Positions 13,622 through 34,293 of a stretch of DNA of 64,000 nt are shown here, piece by piece. Position numbers and translations under genes: made by a program. Position 1 is the first letter of the stretch; each line of letters begins with the position of its first letter. The DNA is from a virus (lineage: Duplodnaviria; Caudoviricetes). Where the stretch lies: positions 1 through 64,000 of IMG/VR virus record IMGVR_UViG_3300026165_000001; one strand, written 5' to 3'. A model generated the notes under the pieces. That model was not told the DNA's origin, did no database searches, and saw nothing but the letters and a program-made list of their open reading frames with translations.

Positions 13622-14230
13622 TTATGAACCTGTTGCGTTCGCTTGTGTGACAGTCTCAACGCTAAAGTTTGGATCGCTAAGGTTGTCAATTGCACCAACA
13701 AAGTGTTGTGCGTTGTCATAGCGTAGCTGCACTGAAATGGTCTGGTATTCACCACCACTGCCGTAGTTGGTCTCATTGTATGTTAGGTTTGAAATATATG
13801 CACCGCTCAAAACCCATGTGTCTAGCGGGACTGGATCTGGGTTAGCACCATTCAAGTTTTCAATTTGACACTGGAATTTATAGCTAATACCGGCCTGTGG
13901 TGAGCTCTGGTTTGCCATATCGATCTGCTTCGCAACTTGTTGGTCAAGTAGTGCTGAAGTTGCTGATGTAATGTCGTCACGTAGCTCGATGGTTACAGGC
14001 TCCCAGGAGTGCTTACCAGCTAGGTAGATACGTGAGTTGTATGTGTCCACTAGAACTTCATCATGTGTAAGGTTCGGACGTGTGACGCTGACAACGTTGT
14101 TTGTTGCAACTTTTGTGTCGCCTGCACCCATGTTGATGAAGTTAACGCGGAAGCGGTATTGTAGTTTTGGCATCAGTGTACCTTGGCTTTCGCCGTTTAC
14201 TGGGACACTTAGCTTGTCAAGAACTGCCAT
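13622..14230 (-). CDS. gp19: Tail tube protein (gp19-like)
   Basis: LMPKLQYRFRV...YNSRIYLAGKHSWEPVTIELRDD...LRYDNA, with a late promoter at 14265-14271. Confidence 0.85.
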   Translation of the reverse strand: MAVLDKLSVPVNGESQGTLMPKLQYRFRVNFINMGAGDTKVATNNVVSVTRPNLTHDEVLVDTYNSRIYLAGKHSWEPVTIELRDDITSATSALLDQQVAKQIDMANQSSPQAGISYKFQCQIENLNGANPDPVPLDTWVLSGAYISNLTYNETNYGSGGEYQTISVQLRYDNAQHFVGAIDNLSDPNFSVETVTQANATGS

Positions 14231-14290
14231 TCGTCTATCTCCTCATAATGCGCTCTGCTCAAAGTATTTATCATCTAGAGAAAATTTTCC

Positions 14291-14319
14291 TTGACAGCCA
14301 AAACGTCTTACTATATAGT
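14291..14319 (+). promoter_or_regulatory. Near-consensus sigma70 promoter, divergent from the tube gene
   Basis: TTGACA-N17-TATAGT. Confidence 0.85.
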
Positions 14320-14342
14320 ATAACTATAAAGAAGGAAACTGA

Positions 14343-14432
14343 ATGATGTTTATGACTCTTGAAAATCTTGTTATCGGTTCTACGCTGTTTGTAACTGATT
14401 TTGTCAACACTTACGGCGTTCTCTTTCTCTAA
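14343..14432 (+). CDS. Small hydrophobic peptide (29 aa)
   Basis: MMFMTLENLVIGSTLFVTDFVNTYGVLFL*, with SD GAAGGA 6 nt upstream and a promoter directly upstream. Confidence 0.55.
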   Translation: MMFMTLENLVIGSTLFVTDFVNTYGVLFL

Positions 14433-14610
14433 GCACTAGAAACTCGTGGACCACGGCCAGATAAGGCTGGAGGACGGGGCTGAGGGGCGATAGAAACCGT
14501 ATTAGACCATCGCCCGGTATATGCATTGTTTCGTAACTACGGCCGTTGAGACTTTCGCTTTTCGGTGATGCCATCCTCAATTAGCTGTAGCAAACGCTTT
14601 GCACTAGTGT
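14433..14610 (+). ncRNA. Candidate structured RNA (multi-way junction)
   Basis: Closing stem GCACTAG/CTAGTGT encloses several nested stems. The G-U pairs work only on the + strand. No ORF. Confidence 0.55.
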
Positions 14611-14615
14611 AAACT

Positions 14616-14645
14616 TGAAGCCGCTCAATTTATTGAGCGGCTTCA
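14616..14645. terminator. Long perfect hairpin between convergent units
   Basis: TGAAGCCGCTCAAT-TT-ATTGAGCGGCTTCA. Confidence 0.8.
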
Positions 14646-14646
14646 C

Positions 14647-15072
14647 TTATGGCTTGATTATATTATGGTGGGGTAAGACCATGAGTTGATCATCTTCGCC
14701 TTCTGGCTGATCATATGTCAACCACTGTGGTGGTTGACCATCCTTCCTGGCTTCTCTAATTTCTTCCAGCATTGCAGCTTCTTCACGACTGTATGGGTAT
14801 TCATACAAGCGGTGACCTCTGTCGTTGATCGCCCAGAGTATAATTGATGGCTTGTTTGTTATCTCATGCCAAACATAGGCATATTCACCTTGGGGTTTGG
14901 CTTGTATTGGCGCCCCCATTTGCCTTACGAAGAGCTCATAAGCGACTACTCCGATCATAAGAAAACACATCAACGCGATAGATTTTAAAAACCAATGTGC
15001 TGGTGACCAGTAAGCCAGAAAAGAAACAAGCAATGCAGTTAATATGCCTATGAGAGTTAATATTGTTACCAT
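14647..15072 (-). CDS. Membrane protein (2 N-terminal TMs)
   Basis: Hydrophobic aa 1-47; third gene of a coupled membrane trio. Confidence 0.75.
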   Translation of the reverse strand: MVTILTLIGILTALLVSFLAYWSPAHWFLKSIALMCFLMIGVVAYELFVRQMGAPIQAKPQGEYAYVWHEITNKPSIILWAINDRGHRLYEYPYSREEAAMLEEIREARKDGQPPQWLTYDQPEGEDDQLMVLPHHNIIKP

Positions 15073-15677
15073 TCGTCATTCCCATCGCTCATTGAAGGCG
15101 GAAGCGTATTTCTTCTCACCTGAACATTTGTTCTTAAGTCCGTGATCTTTCCATCCTGTCCGACGATGAATGACACCACTGTTGTCTCTTGACTAGGGTC
15201 AAGCGTAACCGTGTCTGTAAACACACTGCGGAACGGATTCAGCATGGTCAAATTAATTGTGATGTCTTCTGTTGGTCCTGAACTGCTATAATAATGAACA
15301 TTTACAAAATATTCACCTGGAGGCAAAATTGTGAAACGTATATTTTCATAATTGCGTGATATTACCACTTGCTCACCATCAACCATGATAGTATCATTTT
15401 GTGTGCCGCGGTCATCTCGCTCTAGAACAAAATAACTACCATCCATACGAGTAAACCCAACCCAATCCCTGTCTTTGCCTTGGACCCAAAGATCAATATC
15501 AACATAACTTTCATCATCCCATTCCATTTCGACCATGAAGCGTATGGGAGGATCAATTTGTCCGCCTTGGGTTGGTGGATTGATCATGAGAAAGGCAAGA
15601 ATAAACATCAACGTAATACCCAACAACAAGTTGAATACCAAATCCAAAAATGCTAATCTAAGAGTTCCTGATGTCAT
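15066..15677 (-). CDS. ExbD/MotB-like single-TM protein with a YfaP-like soluble domain
   Basis: TM LAFLDLVFNLLLG carries an Asp. WDDESYVDIDLWV...LERDDRG...ENI resembles YfaP/DUF2135. Confidence 0.6.
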   Translation of the reverse strand: MTSGTLRLAFLDLVFNLLLGITLMFILAFLMINPPTQGGQIDPPIRFMVEMEWDDESYVDIDLWVQGKDRDWVGFTRMDGSYFVLERDDRGTQNDTIMVDGEQVVISRNYENIRFTILPPGEYFVNVHYYSSSGPTEDITINLTMLNPFRSVFTDTVTLDPSQETTVVSFIVGQDGKITDLRTNVQVRRNTLPPSMSDGNDEW

Positions 15678-16126
15678 TCTTCAAGTATCACTAACTGAAA
15701 ATTAATCAACGCTGATAGTATAATACCACTAAGAGATGTAATCAATGCTGCTGCCATTCCGCTTGCCATACTGGTTAGAGCTTGTGTCATTGCAACAGTA
15801 TCTGCTGGATCTAATACAACCCCAGGCCCAAACACACTCCAAAGAACGATCATAAATCCAATCAATGTACCGACGAGACCAATCGAAACAGTGGTTTCGC
15901 CCATATAACGAACCATTTTGTGTTCGTATTCTTCATATGATTTTCGCCAATGCATACGAATCATTAAGATGTGGGCCACCGCCGCAATGCCTAGGTTAAC
16001 GAATGTTAGGTAGGTTTGATCATAATTTAGAATGAAGTCAAACAATCCAAGGTAATATTGGCCTGTTGCTAATACAAACACTGTCAATATTAATACTGTC
16101 CAAAACTTCCAAAATTTCATATTCAT
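15674..16126 (-). CDS. MotA/TolQ/ExbB proton-channel family protein
   Basis: SIGLVGTLIGF and GMAAALITSLSGI match the two conserved channel helices. Confidence 0.75.
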   Translation of the reverse strand: MNMKFWKFWTVLILTVFVLATGQYYLGLFDFILNYDQTYLTFVNLGIAAVAHILMIRMHWRKSYEEYEHKMVRYMGETTVSIGLVGTLIGFMIVLWSVFGPGVVLDPADTVAMTQALTSMASGMAAALITSLSGIILSALINFQLVILEE

Positions 16127-32700: not shown

Positions 32701-32871
32701 ATATCCTTCAAACTGACCAAGGTCAGAATTGAAACGTATCATACCATCAACACCAGATGGTCGATTACCTGTTGTGCCTACTGGTAACTTGACAGCACCT
32801 AGAATATCGAATGTGAGTGTCTCGTCTTCAGTTGAGATCAGGTTACCATTATGATTTAAATTAATTGGCAT
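29791..32871 (-). CDS. Long tail fibre protein
   Basis: Repeats VDSVNGQTGVVVL, KLAGIE.GA, SEGTNLYYTDERV; LPVGT..RP...IR.NS...FEGY modules. Confidence 0.85.
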   Translation of the reverse strand: MPINLNHNGNLISTEDETLTFDILGAVKLPVGTTGNRPSGVDGMIRFNSDLGQFEGYNSGWGAIGGGSGGDVDSVNGQTGVVVLDPDDLDDTSTTNKFTTASDISKLAGVEAGATADQTDAEIKTAYENNADTNAFTDAEQTKLAGVEALADVTDTANVTSAGALMDSEVTNLADVKAFDPADYATAAQGDLADTALQDLSGSSTTDLSEGTNLYFTNERVDDRVDSLLVGGTNITLTYDDVSGTLTIDAAGGTAPVDSVNGQTGVVVLDPDDLDDTSTTNKFTTAGDISKLAGIETGATADQTDAEIKTAYENNVNTNAFTDSEQTKLAGIETGADVTDTANVTSAGALMDSEVTNLAAVKAFDPADYATAAQGDLADTALQDLSGNSTTDLSEGTNLYYTDERVDDRVAALLVEGDAINLTYNDVAGTLTVAVPDQAITFAKMQHIATNRILGRDSSGTGDIEALTGPAATDLLRTFNISNSGIVPSSGGGTTNFLRADGSWAEPAYYNTFNTDFDTRLGTKDTDDLSEGTNLYYTDERVDDRVDSLLTAGSNVTLTYNDVAGTLTIDAGGDVDSVNGLTGAVVLDPDDLDDTSTTNKFTTAGDISKLAGIEALADVTDTVNVAAAGAVMDSDFSTNGFMRRTGAGTYTNDANIDLASQVTGNLPVSNLNGGTGASSSTYWRGDGTWASIAGGGDVNKVGTPVDNQVGVWTGDGTIEGTTGLTYNGAALDITGNITVSGTVDGRDLASDGTKLDGIEALADVTDTANVTAAGALMDSEVTNLAAVKAFDPADYVDLTSNQTIGGNKTFADNINLTRSTGTAPHFIQIGEGRTGDGNAFIDLVGGTTYTDYGFRILRASEGNTSLFHRGTDSLIMRTIDAADIQFQTDGANNRLVVKSDGLIGIGTGAPAVSLDISATDAIRLPVGTDAQRPTGADGYIRYNSTNNEFEGYSNSSWAALGGGGGAGLFKGENGEVGSAPGDIFRVNEQVLNTDVTIDANENASAAGPLEIATGTTITVNGNLSIV
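31020..32660 (-). repeat. Intragenic near-identical repeats in the tail fibre (~555-nt unit twice, plus partial copies)
   Basis: TCCATTTACACT occurs at 32086 and 32641 (555 nt apart). LDPDDLDDTSTTNKFTT occurs three times. Confidence 0.85.
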
Positions 32872-32888
32872 TTTTGTGAAGATTCCTA

Positions 32889-32917
32889 TTGACTTCCTGG
32901 TATTTATCGCTTATATT
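32889..32917 (+). promoter_or_regulatory. Sigma70-type promoter overlapping the opposite-strand late promoter of the fibre gene
   Basis: TTGACT-N17-TATATT, with TATTTAT (32901-32907) inside the spacer. Confidence 0.75.
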
Positions 32918-32923
32918 GAATAC

Positions 32924-33116
32924 ATATTAAGCGGCTCCGAGGGATATGGGGCGTTGAATAAAGTAACTAGCGTTAGGCACAGGTGAGACCGGACTATTAC
33001 AGCTGGTCACTGACCCTAGTGCACCTGAGGTCGCGTTGCGGCCATAGGGGATCAGAGTAACTAGTAACCATTTCGATCAAGAGTGAACCGGCCCTAGGGC
33101 CGGTTCTTTTGTTTTT
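32924..33116 (+). ncRNA. Candidate ~190-nt small RNA
   Basis: Bounded by a promoter and a + strand U-tailed terminator. No ORF; several stems with + strand G-U pairs. Confidence 0.6.
33085..33116 (+). terminator. Intrinsic terminator, U-tract on the + strand
   Basis: GAACCGGCCC-TA-GGGCCGGTTC-TTTTGTTTTT. Confidence 0.85.
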
Positions 33117-33132
33117 ACTAAAACAACAGCTA

Positions 33133-34293
33133 TTAGCTGAAGGTTAGGTTTGCAGTTGTAACGTCAATGCGGTTTAGGTAGTCCGCAGCGTTACCAAGGC
33201 TTGACGCCTGGTTGCTGAGTTCTACGTATCCGTAACGTGTCATGAAGCTGACAACTGGCTCGAAGGTGCTTGGGTCAAGCACTGTGCCTGAGCTCATTAG
33301 AGGAATGTATGGGCAGTAGAATGCCGCTGCATCTGTCTCGTTTGAACCTTTATATCCGATAAGGATGTTGTCGTCTGTCGCATACTGGTTAACATAAACG
33401 CGCATTGAGCCGTTTAGTGTACCAACGAACTTGGTGTTTGTTGGCGCCTCGAAAGGACCTTCAGTTGTGCGAGCAAATGCACTTGTGGTAGCTGCCTGGA
33501 GCACTGTGAGGATTGTTGGTGAAACAACCATCCAGTTACCAGCGCCACGACGTGTGCGAGCTGCAATGTCGTTTGCTGCCTTGTTGATGAGCACTGCTAG
33601 TGCAGCATGTTCGTCACCAACAAAGGTTGCGGTTCCGCTTACTGCGTTCTGGTCGTATGTGCTGGTTGCAGCACCTGCGAGTGAACGTAGAGATGCTAGG
33701 ATCTCTTGGTCGATTTCAGCAGTGATCTCCTGCGCGAGCGCAGCCATGATCTCTGCTTCAACGTCTAGGCCATGCATAGCTTGTGCGTCTTGCGCAGCTT
33801 CGAAAGTCCAACGTGCGCTGAGCTTACGAGTCTTTGCTTCGACGGTCTGCTTGAGGACCTGGATGTTTAGCTTACGACCAGCCTGACCTTCAAGCACTGA
33901 AGTTGCTTCAGCGCGGTCAGTTGTAGCGTTACCTGAGTAACCGTTAGCAATCTGGAACGGGCTAAGTGCCTCGTCACCAGCAACTGCTGAGTCGAATGTT
34001 TCTGCATAACGGACACGTAGAGTGTGGATTTGACCAACTGGGCCGGTCATTGGCTGCACACCAACTAGTTCGTTTGCAATAACAGTTGGCATAACACGGC
34101 GGATAACTGGTAGGATCACTTTGTTAAGTGTCGCAATGTTACCTGCTGATGTTGAGCCGACTGTTGCAGATTCTGACAACTGCTTCTTGGTGTTTTCAAG
34201 AACAGTTTCCATAACTGACTTTTTGTTACCGGTCAAGCCGTCAACGAGTGCGTCCTTGGTTGCTGACCAGTTTTCGAATAGAACGTCTGCCAT
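33133..34293 (-). CDS. gp23: Major capsid protein (gp23-like)
   Basis: RRVMPTVIANELVGVQPMTGPVGQI...VEAKTRKL...FYCPYIPL...FMTRYG. Confidence 0.97.
   Translation of the reverse strand: MADVLFENWSATKDALVDGLTGNKKSVMETVLENTKKQLSESATVGSTSAGNIATLNKVILPVIRRVMPTVIANELVGVQPMTGPVGQIHTLRVRYAETFDSAVAGDEALSPFQIANGYSGNATTDRAEATSVLEGQAGRKLNIQVLKQTVEAKTRKLSARWTFEAAQDAQAMHGLDVEAEIMAALAQEITAEIDQEILASLRSLAGAATSTYDQNAVSGTATFVGDEHAALAVLINKAANDIAARTRRGAGNWMVVSPTILTVLQAATTSAFARTTEGPFEAPTNTKFVGTLNGSMRVYVNQYATDDNILIGYKGSNETDAAAFYCPYIPLMSSGTVLDPSTFEPVVSFMTRYGYVELSNQASSLGNAADYLNRIDVTTANLTFS

Follow-up and report, generated by a model that had tools for sequence, protein, structure and literature searches.

The 178 nt that follow a small membrane-type peptide gene, at 14433–14610, probably form a genuine RNA structure, a 3′ domain of an early transcript that is also coding. 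Judged by comparison of sequences, which gives modest support, the domain would belong to a tiny new family, and we put the probability of a functional + strand RNA structure at roughly 55%. The window, that is, the whole 64,000-nt stretch of DNA analysed here, belongs to a fragment of 87 kb from an uncultured jumbo myovirus (giant phage). The catalogue of structured phage RNAs is, to our knowledge, a poor one, and it is poorest for giant uncultured phages. Should the element be real, it would represent an RNA family not yet on file, carried by an early unit that a host-type promoter drives from within the late structural genes, and its fold would be linked physically to the translation of a very small membrane peptide. 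The locus is also a concrete case in which related phages exchange RNA-bearing cassettes at one position of the genome. The family as seen has two members, and its present value is therefore that of a lead, not a result.

The segment 14433–14645 makes up the 3′ portion of a "moron" unit flanked by the tail-tube gene and a gene for a membrane protein (Table 1). The layout on the + strand is as follows: a near-consensus σ70 promoter, a Shine-Dalgarno sequence, a 29-aa ORF, the 178-nt tail and a 14-bp hairpin. The unit is oriented against the flanking tail-tube gene and the next late operon. The motif at the left border may, by analogy with T4, be a late promoter; AAGTATTTAT is retained in L003, L004, L005, L006 and L087. 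A promoter-bearing unit is found at the equivalent position in all close relatives, and the slot, bounded by the tail-tube gene and the late gene that follows, carries different cargo in these same five. The −35 box, TTGAC(A/T), is kept in four of the five; L087 has TTTACC. Transcription would start near 14326. With its own promoter and putative terminator, its insertion between conserved genes and its variability among relatives, the unit has the sequence features of a phage moron. The convergent gene at the right border encodes a protein with homologues in L005 (48% identity) and L003 (35%) and with no Pfam or PHROG family. Elsewhere in the same phage, at 32885–33118, there is an ORF-less promoter-to-terminator unit that also has an ACUAG...ACUAGU pairing.

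Table 1. Coordinates of the features of the unit and its borders (positions in the window).
Feature	Position	Strand	Details
T4-type late-promoter-like motif GATAAATAC	14264..14272	-	~35 nt upstream of tail-tube start; left border of slot
σ70-type promoter TTGACA-17-TATAGT	14291..14319	+	11/12 consensus positions matched
Shine-Dalgarno AAGGA	14332..14336	+	6 nt upstream of ATG; also left junction of the mobile peptide-RNA module
29-aa hydrophobic, membrane-type peptide ORF MMFMTLENLVIGSTLFVTDFVNTYGVLFL	14343..14432	+	stop TAA 14430-32
Folded 3′ domain, multi-branch junction, 178 nt (predicted)	14433..14610	+	MFE, pair counts, alifold tests, covariance model R1
P1 5′ strand GCACUAG	14433..14439	+	first base after stop; pairs 14604-14610 (CUAGUGU); probability 0.97
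P2 arm: CUCGU/ACGGG (14443-47/14474-78) around hairpin 14454-58/14465-69	14443..14478	+	probabilities 0.64, 0.98
P3 hairpin GGGCGAU/AUCGCCC, 17-nt loop	14485..14515	+	100% complementary; probability 0.94
P1′ (UGCA, 14522-25) and P1″ (CGU, 14532-34) 5′ strands	14522..14534	+	pair 14600-03 and 14594-96, respectively; probabilities 0.88, 0.46
P4 long arm: outer 14537-43/14584-90, inner 14545-50/14576-81, apical hairpin 14555-59/14564-68	14537..14590	+	probabilities 0.94-0.99
3′ strand ACG-CUU-UGCA-CUAGUGU	14594..14610	+	pairs successively with P1″, P1′, P1
GC-rich perfect 14-bp hairpin, terminator-like	14616..14645		arms 14616-29/14632-45; common to + unit and convergent 141-aa gene
Convergent 141-aa membrane-protein gene	14647..15072	-	right border of slot

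Natural variants were collected by aligning contigs from four DNA runs to the region; the 14 runs considered included no RNA run carrying it. Contigs from two runs switch to other sequence just before 14332. One of them (X9 record 13) has 236 additional letters between 14323 and 14332, and the other (X10 record 5) joins other upstream genes and is then continuous through the peptide, the tail and the hairpin to 14682. As read from these contigs, the peptide-RNA module moves as a unit with its left junction at 14332. A single contig spans the tail, with six base differences from the window, and one natural variant is a 3-nt deletion in the hairpin loop at 14629.

Codon comparison shows that the 29-aa ORF is real and under purifying selection. 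The peptide and its L004 counterpart share 16 invariant columns; of the 23 aligned codons, six are identical, nine differ synonymously and eight non-synonymously. Synonymous sites are near saturation, with nine of the 15 residue-identical codons differing. The ORFs of L004 and L169 are separated by just two differences, both silent (GTT/GTC, GCA/GCC). The codon differences and the AAGGA sequence together supply what is expected of the small ORF in a dual-function sRNA, namely that it be translated or under selection. The peptide has no Pfam or PHROG family, and a peptide-based search finds three loci carrying it, all from known lineages.

The evidence that carries the main finding comes from the one other lineage in which a homologous tail was found, L004/L169. 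The tail of the window is identical to that of L004 at 101 of 164 aligned bases, and the sequence-only alignment score (z 4.3) was equalled by none of 200 interior shuffles. Long identical blocks are retained in the tail despite the near-saturated synonymous sites of the adjoining ORF. For the covariation test, the window's own MFE structure was placed on a purely sequence-based MAFFT alignment with L004. The cells paired under this structure amount to 78.8%, versus 30–47% in slid controls, and eight pairs are changed on both sides, versus 0–3 in the slid controls; eight was reached by nine of 500 shuffles, so that the covariation support, which comes from a single sequence pair, has a significance at about the 1–2% level. 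The consensus fold has an energy of −17.7 kcal/mol versus −9.25 ± 3.3 for column shuffles (z −2.56, 3/300; on repetition z −2.46, 5/300). The reverse-complement alignment gives a weak signal (z −1.05, 44/300), and the conserved-structure signal is therefore on the promoter's (+) strand.

The helices differ in how well they are kept. Pairing is complete (100%) for P1, P1′ and P1″ in both sequences, and the three together have four compensatory changes. In L004, P1 reads AUGACUAG/CUAGUCAU, where one change is compensatory and another one-sided; the P1 5′ strand is identical in L005. P1′ and P1″ account for the other three changes (UGCA/UGCA to UAGA/UCUA; CGU/ACG to UGU/ACA), and their 5′ strands sit inside the best-conserved block, GGUAU.U..AUUG....GUAA. 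In an alignment read by eye, CAAACGCUUUGCACUAGUGU has six substitutions between the window and L004, five of them in pairs that are still standard. P3 retains four of seven pairs, two of them compensatory, and the outer helix of P4 keeps five of seven, again with two compensatory. When the sequence alignment is used, the helices poorly kept in L004 are those of P2, with 70% and 57% of their cells paired, the inner helix of P4 (0/5) and the apical hairpin; for P2, an equivalent CCCGUG/CAC-GGG helix may be present there, by eye. Our own Sankoff-type aligner, which scores structure and sequence together, found no excess over shuffles for window and L004 (z 0.64, 14/50) or for window and L005 (z 1.16, 5/45). 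On the sequence-based alignment, the tail and its long-range helices are conserved in one other lineage.

The original prediction proposed eight pairing elements in an RNA that starts directly after the peptide stop codon. That start agrees with the position of P1, and a check of the sequence confirms that each element can pair as drawn. The elements are a closing stem GCACTAG/CTAGTGT (7 bp including one G-U); two small 5′ hairpins, CGTG/CACG and CCAG/CTGG; an arm ACGGGGC/GTTTCGT at 14474-80/14528-34 (7 bp including three G-U) and, within it, the perfect 7 bp of GGGCGAT/ATCGCCC at 14485-91/14509-15; an arm at 14537–14590 with outer CTACGGC/GCTGTAG and inner TTGAG/CTCAA; and a hairpin GCAAA-CGC-TTTGC, whose base 14590 is shared with the preceding arm. 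In the thermodynamic ensemble, half of the scheme survives. Four elements are favoured, with mean pair probabilities of 0.97 for the closing stem, 0.94 for 14485-91/14509-15, 0.99 for 14537-43/14584-90 and 0.97 for 14546-50/14576-80; the two small 5′ hairpins, the G-U-rich arm and the hairpin at 14591–14601 have pair probabilities of 0.03 or less. The complete scheme has an energy of −42.3 kcal/mol, versus −55.3 for the MFE. The argument for the + strand from G-U pairs depends on a helix that folding disfavours.

Folding energy must be read with the terminator-like hairpin set apart. The 213 nt including it are more stable than shuffles on either strand (z −3.69 for +, −3.93 for −). For the 180-nt core without it, the energy is no better than that of shuffled controls, an outcome that the original prediction had named as telling against it: z −0.97, with 31 of 200 shuffles as good, on the + strand; z −1.01, 33/200, on the − strand; and z −0.93, 49/300, when the test was repeated. 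On thermodynamic grounds alone, then, the core does not stand out. The domain has the same predicted fold within the full 325-nt transcript as it has in isolation.

The terminator-like hairpin beyond the tail has the perfect 14 bp originally described. It is followed by CUUAUGG, without a clean U-tract, and was uncalled by the terminator scan because there is no run of T. In L003 and L005, hairpins with T-rich tails are found at the equivalent site.

Searches for further members were carried out at several levels. Among 11 sources, covariance model R1 matched the window and L004 only; L005, L003 and L183 were unmatched with filters off. The L005 element has 20-nt ends near-identical to those of the window, an interior without significant similarity (z 1.5, 18/200) and a different peptide, and a three-sequence RNAalifold that includes it gives a poor consensus (−9.4 kcal/mol). 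The 109-nt L003 element was rejected as a member: it has no sequence similarity and an MFE z of +0.18, lies behind a separate terminator-like hairpin and does not match R1. The peptide family of L005 and L003 was found by peptide-based search at two loci, both L005-type. A blastn search with the 416-nt intergenic region as query had no match among 50,697 phage records, and nhmmer and blastn of each candidate tail against up to 251 loci (1.1 Mb) returned self copies only. The exact 3′-end pattern occurs in three IMG/VR contigs only; the core-motif pattern likewise finds just the three known contigs in IMG/VR, and none in GTDB genomes. A metagenome scan with the tail-tube protein kept 80 loci, two of them close, and gave no new tail (L087 is incomplete; L088 equals L005 save one SNP). 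Within the window, the longest exact match or complement of the tail is 13 nt (E 0.13), and RNAduplex against the 5′ regions of the window's ORFs gave only loop-ridden artefacts as antisense targets. A hidden minus-strand gene (58-aa ORF, 14404–14580) was discarded, having no similarity to its L004 counterpart at E up to 100. Rarity of CTAG was likewise dismissed as the cause of the conserved ACTAG, CTAG being observed 181 times versus 142 expected.

No known RNA family accounts for the tail, in agreement with the original statement that the family was not recognised. Rfam 15 at gathering scores has no match in the whole 64-kb window, including hammerhead, twister, pistol, hatchet and HDV-like ribozymes, Y RNA, 6S and riboswitches. 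At E up to 10, the segment 14200–14700 has two matches, to eukaryotic snoRNA/scaRNA models in the ORF region (E 2.6 and 3.7), and none within 14433–14645. ARAGORN finds no tRNA or tmRNA genes in the window. Of the functions first suggested, a ribozyme finds no match among the self-cleaver models of Rfam, and nothing supports a decoy. A structured 3′ element fits best, since there is a + strand unit with promoter and ORF, and blocks and helices are kept in the homologue; the detailed pairing scheme offered with it was half right.

Other explanations of the same observations must be weighed. The tail may be a non-functional spacer or decayed remnant, with pairings such as any 180-mer of 50% GC would offer and a similarity to L004 that is residual common descent. 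We consider this rather unlikely. It would accommodate the unexceptional folding energy of the core, the half of the original helices that the ensemble rejects, the structure-aware alignment scores that do not rise above shuffles, the free replacement of the interior in L005 and L003, and the small size of the family. Against it stand the long identical blocks next to an ORF with near-saturated synonymous sites, the sequence-only score, and the compensatory changes together with an alifold z of about −2.5 on the + strand only. A second proposal is that CTCTAAGCACTAGAwAACTCG and ACTAGTGTAAACTTGAAGCC, the two conserved ends, in which ACTAG repeats and palindromes occur, are recombination linkers for cassette swapping, and that the stem is simply an inverted repeat of such a linker in the DNA. 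The window and L005, with their near-identical ends, unrelated interiors and different peptides, are what such swapping would leave; the restriction of the exact 3′ end to three contigs and the contigs that join the module to other genes fit as well. GCACTAG is also a direct repeat, and the sequence at the 3′ site is nearly palindromic in the window (TTTGCACTAG/CTAGTGTAAA) and, by reading, a perfect 14-nt palindrome in L004. Linkers of this kind are nonetheless improbable: the compensatory changes of P1′ and P1″ fall in the interior and leave the ends aside; the conserved-structure signal differs between the strands, as that of a DNA repeat would not; the rest of the window shows no enrichment of the end motifs (5 versus 5.2 expected; 8 versus 4.7); CTAG is not rare; and the contigs place the left junction at 14332 rather than at the stem.

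The peptide itself invites comparison with type I toxins. The hok and aapA1 messages are translationally locked until processed, and by analogy the peptide would be a membrane toxin whose mRNA is locked by the folded 3′ part and a 5′–3′ pairing until processing. A hydrophobic peptide of 29 aa behind a strong constitutive-type promoter would suit this, as would the predicted fold of the full transcript, in which the Shine-Dalgarno region pairs with the pyrimidine-rich ORF end just before P1. Set against these points, that pairing is not kept in L004 or L005 (by eye), the peptide has no match to any toxin family, and no promoter-like site that could drive an antisense or divergent antitoxin RNA was found on the − strand in or beside the unit, where the sole nearby − strand site (14352–14323, 9/12) points away. 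We regard a toxin-like message as very improbable.

We return to the reading of the tail as a functional + strand RNA. We propose that an autonomous early unit ('moron') is driven by the host-type σ70 promoter and yields a predicted transcript of ~320 nt. The tail would fold as an independent multi-branch domain, with the 7 bp of P1 starting at the first base after the stop. The P1 3′ strand would continue into P1′ and P1″, which would close the long arm P4, and P2 and P3 would branch off the junction, whose strands are the best-conserved sequence. Since P1 adjoins the stop codon, every terminating ribosome would have to melt P1, so that folding of the domain would be coupled to translation of the peptide. 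The tail would thus be the RNA half of a dual-function early transcript. Transcription, the transcript ends, the fold in vivo, the coupling to translation and any function are what we infer from sequence analysis. Our first guess, a tentative one, is that the folded RNA binds a partner, a putative protein or ligand. The second guess, that it is a cis-acting 3′ stabiliser or insulator of the short message, we consider unlikely, and some other role scarcely probable. It is tempting to go further and to posit a new class of 'clamped' RNA modules: a multi-branch domain behind a tiny membrane-peptide gene, with termination-gated folding, 20-nt end clamps that allow exchange of the interior (window versus L005), and a swappable early payload, for example, a decoy for host defence or for an RNA-binding protein, the unit at 32885–33118 being a second member. 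This extension is doubtful.

Among known phage RNAs, manA invites comparison: a phage- and marine-associated structured RNA (PMC2864571; bioRxiv 10.64898/2026.07.01.735769), it is like the present element in its ~190 nt, multi-stem junction and occurrence in marine-type phages. manA RNAs are usually in 5′ UTRs, whereas the present element follows its ORF and is directed towards a terminator-like hairpin and a convergent gene. The manA model (RF01745, gathering 55.2 bits) has no match at E up to 10 in 14200–14700 or 32850–33150. As a positive control, it detects manA at 59.7 bits in the related phage L183, in an intergenic slot of the structural module adjoining the capsid gene; such slots in this clade do host RNA elements.

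In the organisation of the transcript, the unit recalls dual-function small RNAs, both coding and structured, such as Staphylococcus RNAIII/δ-haemolysin and E. coli SgrS/SgrT. The unit would share with them a short transcript with its own promoter and terminator, and a tiny ORF, of 29 aa in the present case, next to a distinct, independently folding RNA domain whose size is comparable or greater. The present domain differs in that all of it follows the ORF, with its clamp at the stop codon, in having no sequence relation to them, and in having no notable complementarity to other genes of the window. In architecture, the predicted fold can be set beside the tRNA-like and Y-RNA-like junction RNAs, with which it shares a 7-bp closing helix, a 3′ strand stacking directly on the next helix and a multi-way junction; it differs from them in the absence of an evident T-loop or CCA and of a match to the Y RNA of Rfam. 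Phage morons are autonomous promoter-gene-terminator units between conserved phage genes. Like them, the present unit has its own σ70 promoter and hairpin, opposes conserved late genes and carries cargo that differs among close relatives. What sets it apart is that more than half of its predicted transcript consists of a conserved domain that codes for no protein.

The intergenic region 14231-14646, one of six gaps of at least 150 nt in the window by a crude ORF cover, holds a + strand unit among flanking genes that are almost all on the - strand (Table). The original prediction saw in it a novel ncRNA (a decoy, a ribozyme or a structured 3' element). The last of these is our best reading, as follows. 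Judging from sequence comparison, we give a probability of roughly 0.55 that the 178-nt tail behind the 29-aa peptide ORF is a structured 3' element of a phage transcript, of unrecognised family; the ribozyme and the decoy found no support. The peptide, which has no Pfam or PHROG family, is the product of a real gene. Between the window and L004, a related locus from another phage, it has 16 invariant columns, and the 23 aligned codons comprise 6 identical, 9 synonymously changed and 8 non-synonymously changed. Since 9 of the 15 same-residue codons have already changed, silent sites are close to saturation. A hidden - strand ORF in the stretch was excluded, there being no similarity to its L004 counterpart at E up to 100. 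The hairpin that closes the unit had been described as terminator-like. It is a perfect 14 bp, but the terminator scan did not call it because no run of T follows; counterpart hairpins in relatives end in T-rich tails.

Positions of the + strand unit, the helices of its tail, neighbouring genes and a second unit
Feature	Position	Strand	Remarks
Tail-tube protein gene	13622-14230	-	PHROG 4542 'tail tube protein', E 2e-46
Promoter TTGACA-17-TATAGT	14291-14319	+	11/12 consensus positions
Shine-Dalgarno AAGGA	14332-36	+	
29-codon ORF	14343-14432	+	
Non-coding stretch (tail)	14433-14610	+	178 nt
Closing stem P1	14433-39/14604-10		mean pair probability 0.97
P2 (MFE)	14443-47/14474-78		encloses hairpin 14454-58/14465-69; replaces disfavoured elements
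P3	14485-91/14509-15		mean pair probability 0.94
P1' (MFE)	14522-25/14600-03		replaces disfavoured elements
P1'' (MFE)	14532-34/14594-96		replaces disfavoured elements
P4, outer	14537-43/14584-90		mean pair probability 0.99
P4, inner	14546-50/14576-80		mean pair probability 0.97
Two small 5' hairpins; G-U-rich arm; 3' hairpin (original prediction)	arm 14474-80/14528-34; 3' hairpin 14591-14601		mean pair probability 0.03 or less
Perfect 14-bp hairpin	14616-29/14632-45		
Convergent 141-aa gene		-	stop directly after the 14-bp hairpin
Second, ORF-less unit	32885-33118	+	between 1026-aa fibre-like gene and capsid gene, both -
Promoter TTGACT-17-TATATT of second unit	32890-32918	+	

The closest GenBank phages to the tail-tube protein (PA5oct-like Pseudomonas jumbo phages, Atu_ph07 and Phosso) reach only about 41% identity, and a sheath C-terminal domain is present in the neighbouring 814-aa protein. 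With the tail-tube match itself, these observations assign the parent record (87,355 bases, the first 64 kb of which form the window; rated about 24% complete in IMG/VR) to an uncultured jumbo myovirus. Among GenBank phages, none has DNA resembling the 416-nt intergenic region. The sheath and tail-tube genes are separated by three membrane-protein genes (141, 203 and 150 aa; 14647-16126, -); the 150-aa product has a MotA/ExbB match below threshold (21.0 bits; cut-off 22.9). All three are missing in L004 and the near-identical L169, where the sheath gene directly follows the cassette. On the - strand, some 35 nt ahead of where the tail-tube gene starts, 14264-14272 reads GATAAATAC, a putative motif of T4 late-promoter type that all close relatives keep at the same place (L003-L006 and L087). 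Similar (A/T)ATAAATA strings stand upstream of genes adjoining the capsid gene in loci L173-L181. Of all tetranucleotides GTAC is by far the most avoided: trinucleotide counts predict 142 copies in the whole window and 12 occur, a deficit suggestive of pressure by a restriction system specific for GTAC. CTAG shows no such avoidance (181 observed, 142 expected).

The tail-tube searches, from which 80 IMG/VR loci and 80 metagenome loci were kept, gave only seven with tail-tube identity of at least 72%. The identity is 92% in L003, 84% in L087, 81% in L004, 78% in L005 and L088, and 72% in L006; L083, found via the 141-aa gene, is a twin of the window (99.5% by tblastn). All seven close loci retain the tail-tube 5' region and an equally placed + strand promoter, and what lies downstream differs. 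In L004 and L169 three additional small genes precede a homologue of the 29-aa peptide, which is followed by some 175 nt and a hairpin. L005 (as well as L084, L086, L088, L170 and L171) encodes an unrelated hydrophobic peptide of 54 aa ahead of some 180 nt and a hairpin. In L003 a gene for 75 aa comes first, then a 49-aa peptide akin to the L005 one, a terminator-like hairpin and further non-coding sequence. The sequences of L006 and L087 end within L004-like genes, and distant tail-tube relatives wholly lack the neighbouring genes. These differences in cargo mark the slot as a variable 'moron' site. The segment 14323-14332 is a natural break-point of the cassette. In one contig from a public DNA run (X10 record 5) the end of an L003-like gene abuts 14332, and the sequence continues to 14682, differing from the window at 6 bases and lacking 3 nt of the hairpin loop at 14629; another (X9 record 13) carries 236 extra letters between 14323 and 14332.

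The window and L004 tails are identical at 101 of 164 aligned bases, in blocks that include ACUAG.AAC.CGUG, GGUAU.U..AUUG....GUAA and CAAAC.C.UU..ACUAGU. Their interiors are significantly similar by sequence alone (z 4.3): when the L004 interior was shuffled, none of 200 versions scored as well, nor any of 50 in a separate run. That the tail is conserved although the adjoining silent sites are saturated argues for constraint on the non-coding stretch. The window and L005 have almost identical ends (5' CTCTAAGCACTAGA(T)AACTCG, 3' ACTAGTGTAAACTTGAAGCC) and interiors without significant similarity (z 1.5, 18/200); no tail similarity is found between L004 and L005 or in any pair with L003. A covariance model built from the window and L004 tails matches these two only among 11 sources, and with filters off the L005 and L003 elements are still not matched. 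A pattern scan for the conserved core returned only the three known contigs from IMG/VR and nothing from GTDB genomes. The tail family as seen has two members, and L005 is a mosaic that has the ends alone in common.

Every pairing of the original prediction is present in the sequence, and four of its eight helices (P1, P3, outer and inner P4) are favoured in the Boltzmann ensemble. The other four are disfavoured, and the energy of the scheme is -42.3 kcal/mol versus -55.3 for the MFE structure. The whole 213 nt appears stable against shuffles (z -3.69 on +, -3.93 on -), and the source of this stability is the terminator hairpin. The 180-nt core has z -0.97 on the + strand (31/200 shuffles as good) and -1.01 on the - strand (33/200). 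Thermodynamics therefore neither singles the core out nor indicates a strand, and a folding energy better than shuffled controls is not found for it. The family, which had not been recognised, has no counterpart in Rfam: at gathering scores there is no match in the window, at E up to 10 only two chance snoRNA-type matches appear, both within the ORF, and the element is a member of no Rfam family. An ARAGORN search for tRNA and tmRNA genes was negative. When the whole 325-nt transcript is folded in silico, the tail is predicted to form a separate domain with exactly the structure it has in isolation. The Shine-Dalgarno region (14330-14338) pairs there with the CU-rich ORF end (about 14420-14428); inspection by eye shows no such pairing in either L004 or L005, so it is given little weight. 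The string CTCAATT occurs both in the inner P4 3' strand (14576-14586) and in the terminator hairpin 5' arm (14624-14634), so strand exchange between the two is conceivable; no counterpart was seen in L004.

Covariation was assessed on a sequence-only MAFFT alignment of the window and L004 with a structure predicted from the window alone, so that neither was fitted to the other. Over 52 pairs, 78.8% of cells are paired, versus 30-47% with partners slid 1-3 columns, and both-sided changes still pair at 8 pairs, versus 0-3 in the slid controls (9/500 shuffles reach 8). P1, P1' and P1'' all use the 3' strand ACG-CUU-UGCA-CUAGUGU; every pair of these helices forms in both sequences, and four of the changes in them are compensatory. 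From window to L004, the outer pairs of P1 change, P1' goes from UGCA/UGCA to UAGA/UCUA, and P1'' from CGU/ACG to UGU/ACA. Two compensated pairs remain in P3 and two in the outer P4 helix, which lose three and two of their seven pairs, respectively, in L004; this alignment preserves P2, the inner P4 helix and the apical hairpin only poorly. The originally predicted scheme does slightly worse (7 compensated pairs, 18/500 shuffles), and its 14591-14601 hairpin is not kept in L004. RNAalifold gives -17.7 kcal/mol for the pair versus -9.25 +/- 3.3 for 300 column shuffles preserving gaps and conservation (z -2.56, 3/300; on repeat, z -2.46, 5/300). The reverse-complemented alignment gives only -10.4 kcal/mol (z -1.05, 44/300), and the signal therefore sits on the promoter's strand. 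Other results speak against a conserved structure. A Sankoff-type aligner of our own, scoring both sequence and base-pair probabilities, shows no excess over shuffles for window-L004 (z 0.64, 14/50) or window-L005 (z 1.16, 5/45). Three-sequence RNAalifold with L005 is poor (-9.4 kcal/mol), and MFE z-scores of the tails are mild (L004 -1.76, 18/300; L005 -1.99, 11/300). Overall, the evidence that the long-range helices are conserved is suggestive, at about the 1-2% level and from one sequence pair.

The weak thermodynamics of the core, and an interior freely replaced in L005 and L003, would suit a spacer with chance pairings; tail conservation and the strand-specific alifold signal speak against it, and we regard it as doubtful. 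It is less probable still that the element ends are a DNA-level recombination linker. The identical ends flanking interiors that are unrelated, the near-palindrome TTTGCACTAG/CTAGTGTAAA, the GCACTAG direct repeat and the module junctions observed in DNA-run contigs point that way, but compensated P1' and P1'' pairs lie inside the element, the conserved-structure signal is strand-asymmetric, the end motifs are not enriched elsewhere in the window, and the left junction was observed at 14332. A type I toxin-like message, suggested by the hydrophobic peptide and the predicted Shine-Dalgarno pairing, seems very unlikely for a unit without any antisense promoter, in which that pairing is not conserved.

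For the structured 3' element, it is tempting to consider the geometry of translation. In the window and L005, P1 starts with the base that directly follows TAA, and in L004 it starts 5 nt after that codon; a terminating ribosome covers roughly ten bases past the stop codon. A ribosome terminating on the peptide ORF would have to open P1, and the junction with it. The best-conserved letters are in the junction strands and the peripheral arms are variable, a pattern to be expected of an RNA shape read by a partner. This inclines us to a dual-function early transcript whose 3' domain would act as a folded RNA; our second choice would be that this domain acts in cis to protect or insulate the short message. 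No base-pairing target was found in the window, and none of the 14 runs listed for the sequence is an RNA run. The element is a lead, with a tiny family and modest statistics.

The second unit has, after its promoter, about 160 nt without a credible ORF, and ends in a canonical terminator (GAACCGGCCC/GGGCCGGTTC plus T-run). Its ACUAG (32966) pairs with ACUAGU (33060) in the MFE structure, as at the ends of the 14433-14610 element, and its core MFE is unremarkable (z -0.88, 37/200). Rfam returns only terminator-type chance matches for this unit, and similar sequence is found in none of 80 capsid-gene relatives; in most of these, just a short terminator-bearing spacer occupies the corresponding place. 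L183, a related phage with an MCP about 80% identical, has a true manA RNA (RF01745) downstream of the capsid gene (2770-2976, +; 59.7 bits versus a gathering score of 55.2, E 1e-14), beyond which come a hairpin plus T-run and then the next gene. By our own reading, its promoter TTGACTTCTGGTAT...TATATT resembles that of the second unit. The manA motif is described as phage- and marine-associated, of unknown function and a proposed riboswitch candidate (PMC2864571), and a 2026 preprint reports that manA RNAs form cages (bioRxiv 10.64898/2026.07.01.735769). The window's element is not manA, and the L183 example shows only that structural-module intergenic slots in this clade carry structured RNAs. 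The unit behind the 14291-14319 promoter corresponds to what is called a phage moron. The dual-function small RNAs RNAIII and SgrS have no sequence relation to this unit and are the most like it in layout.
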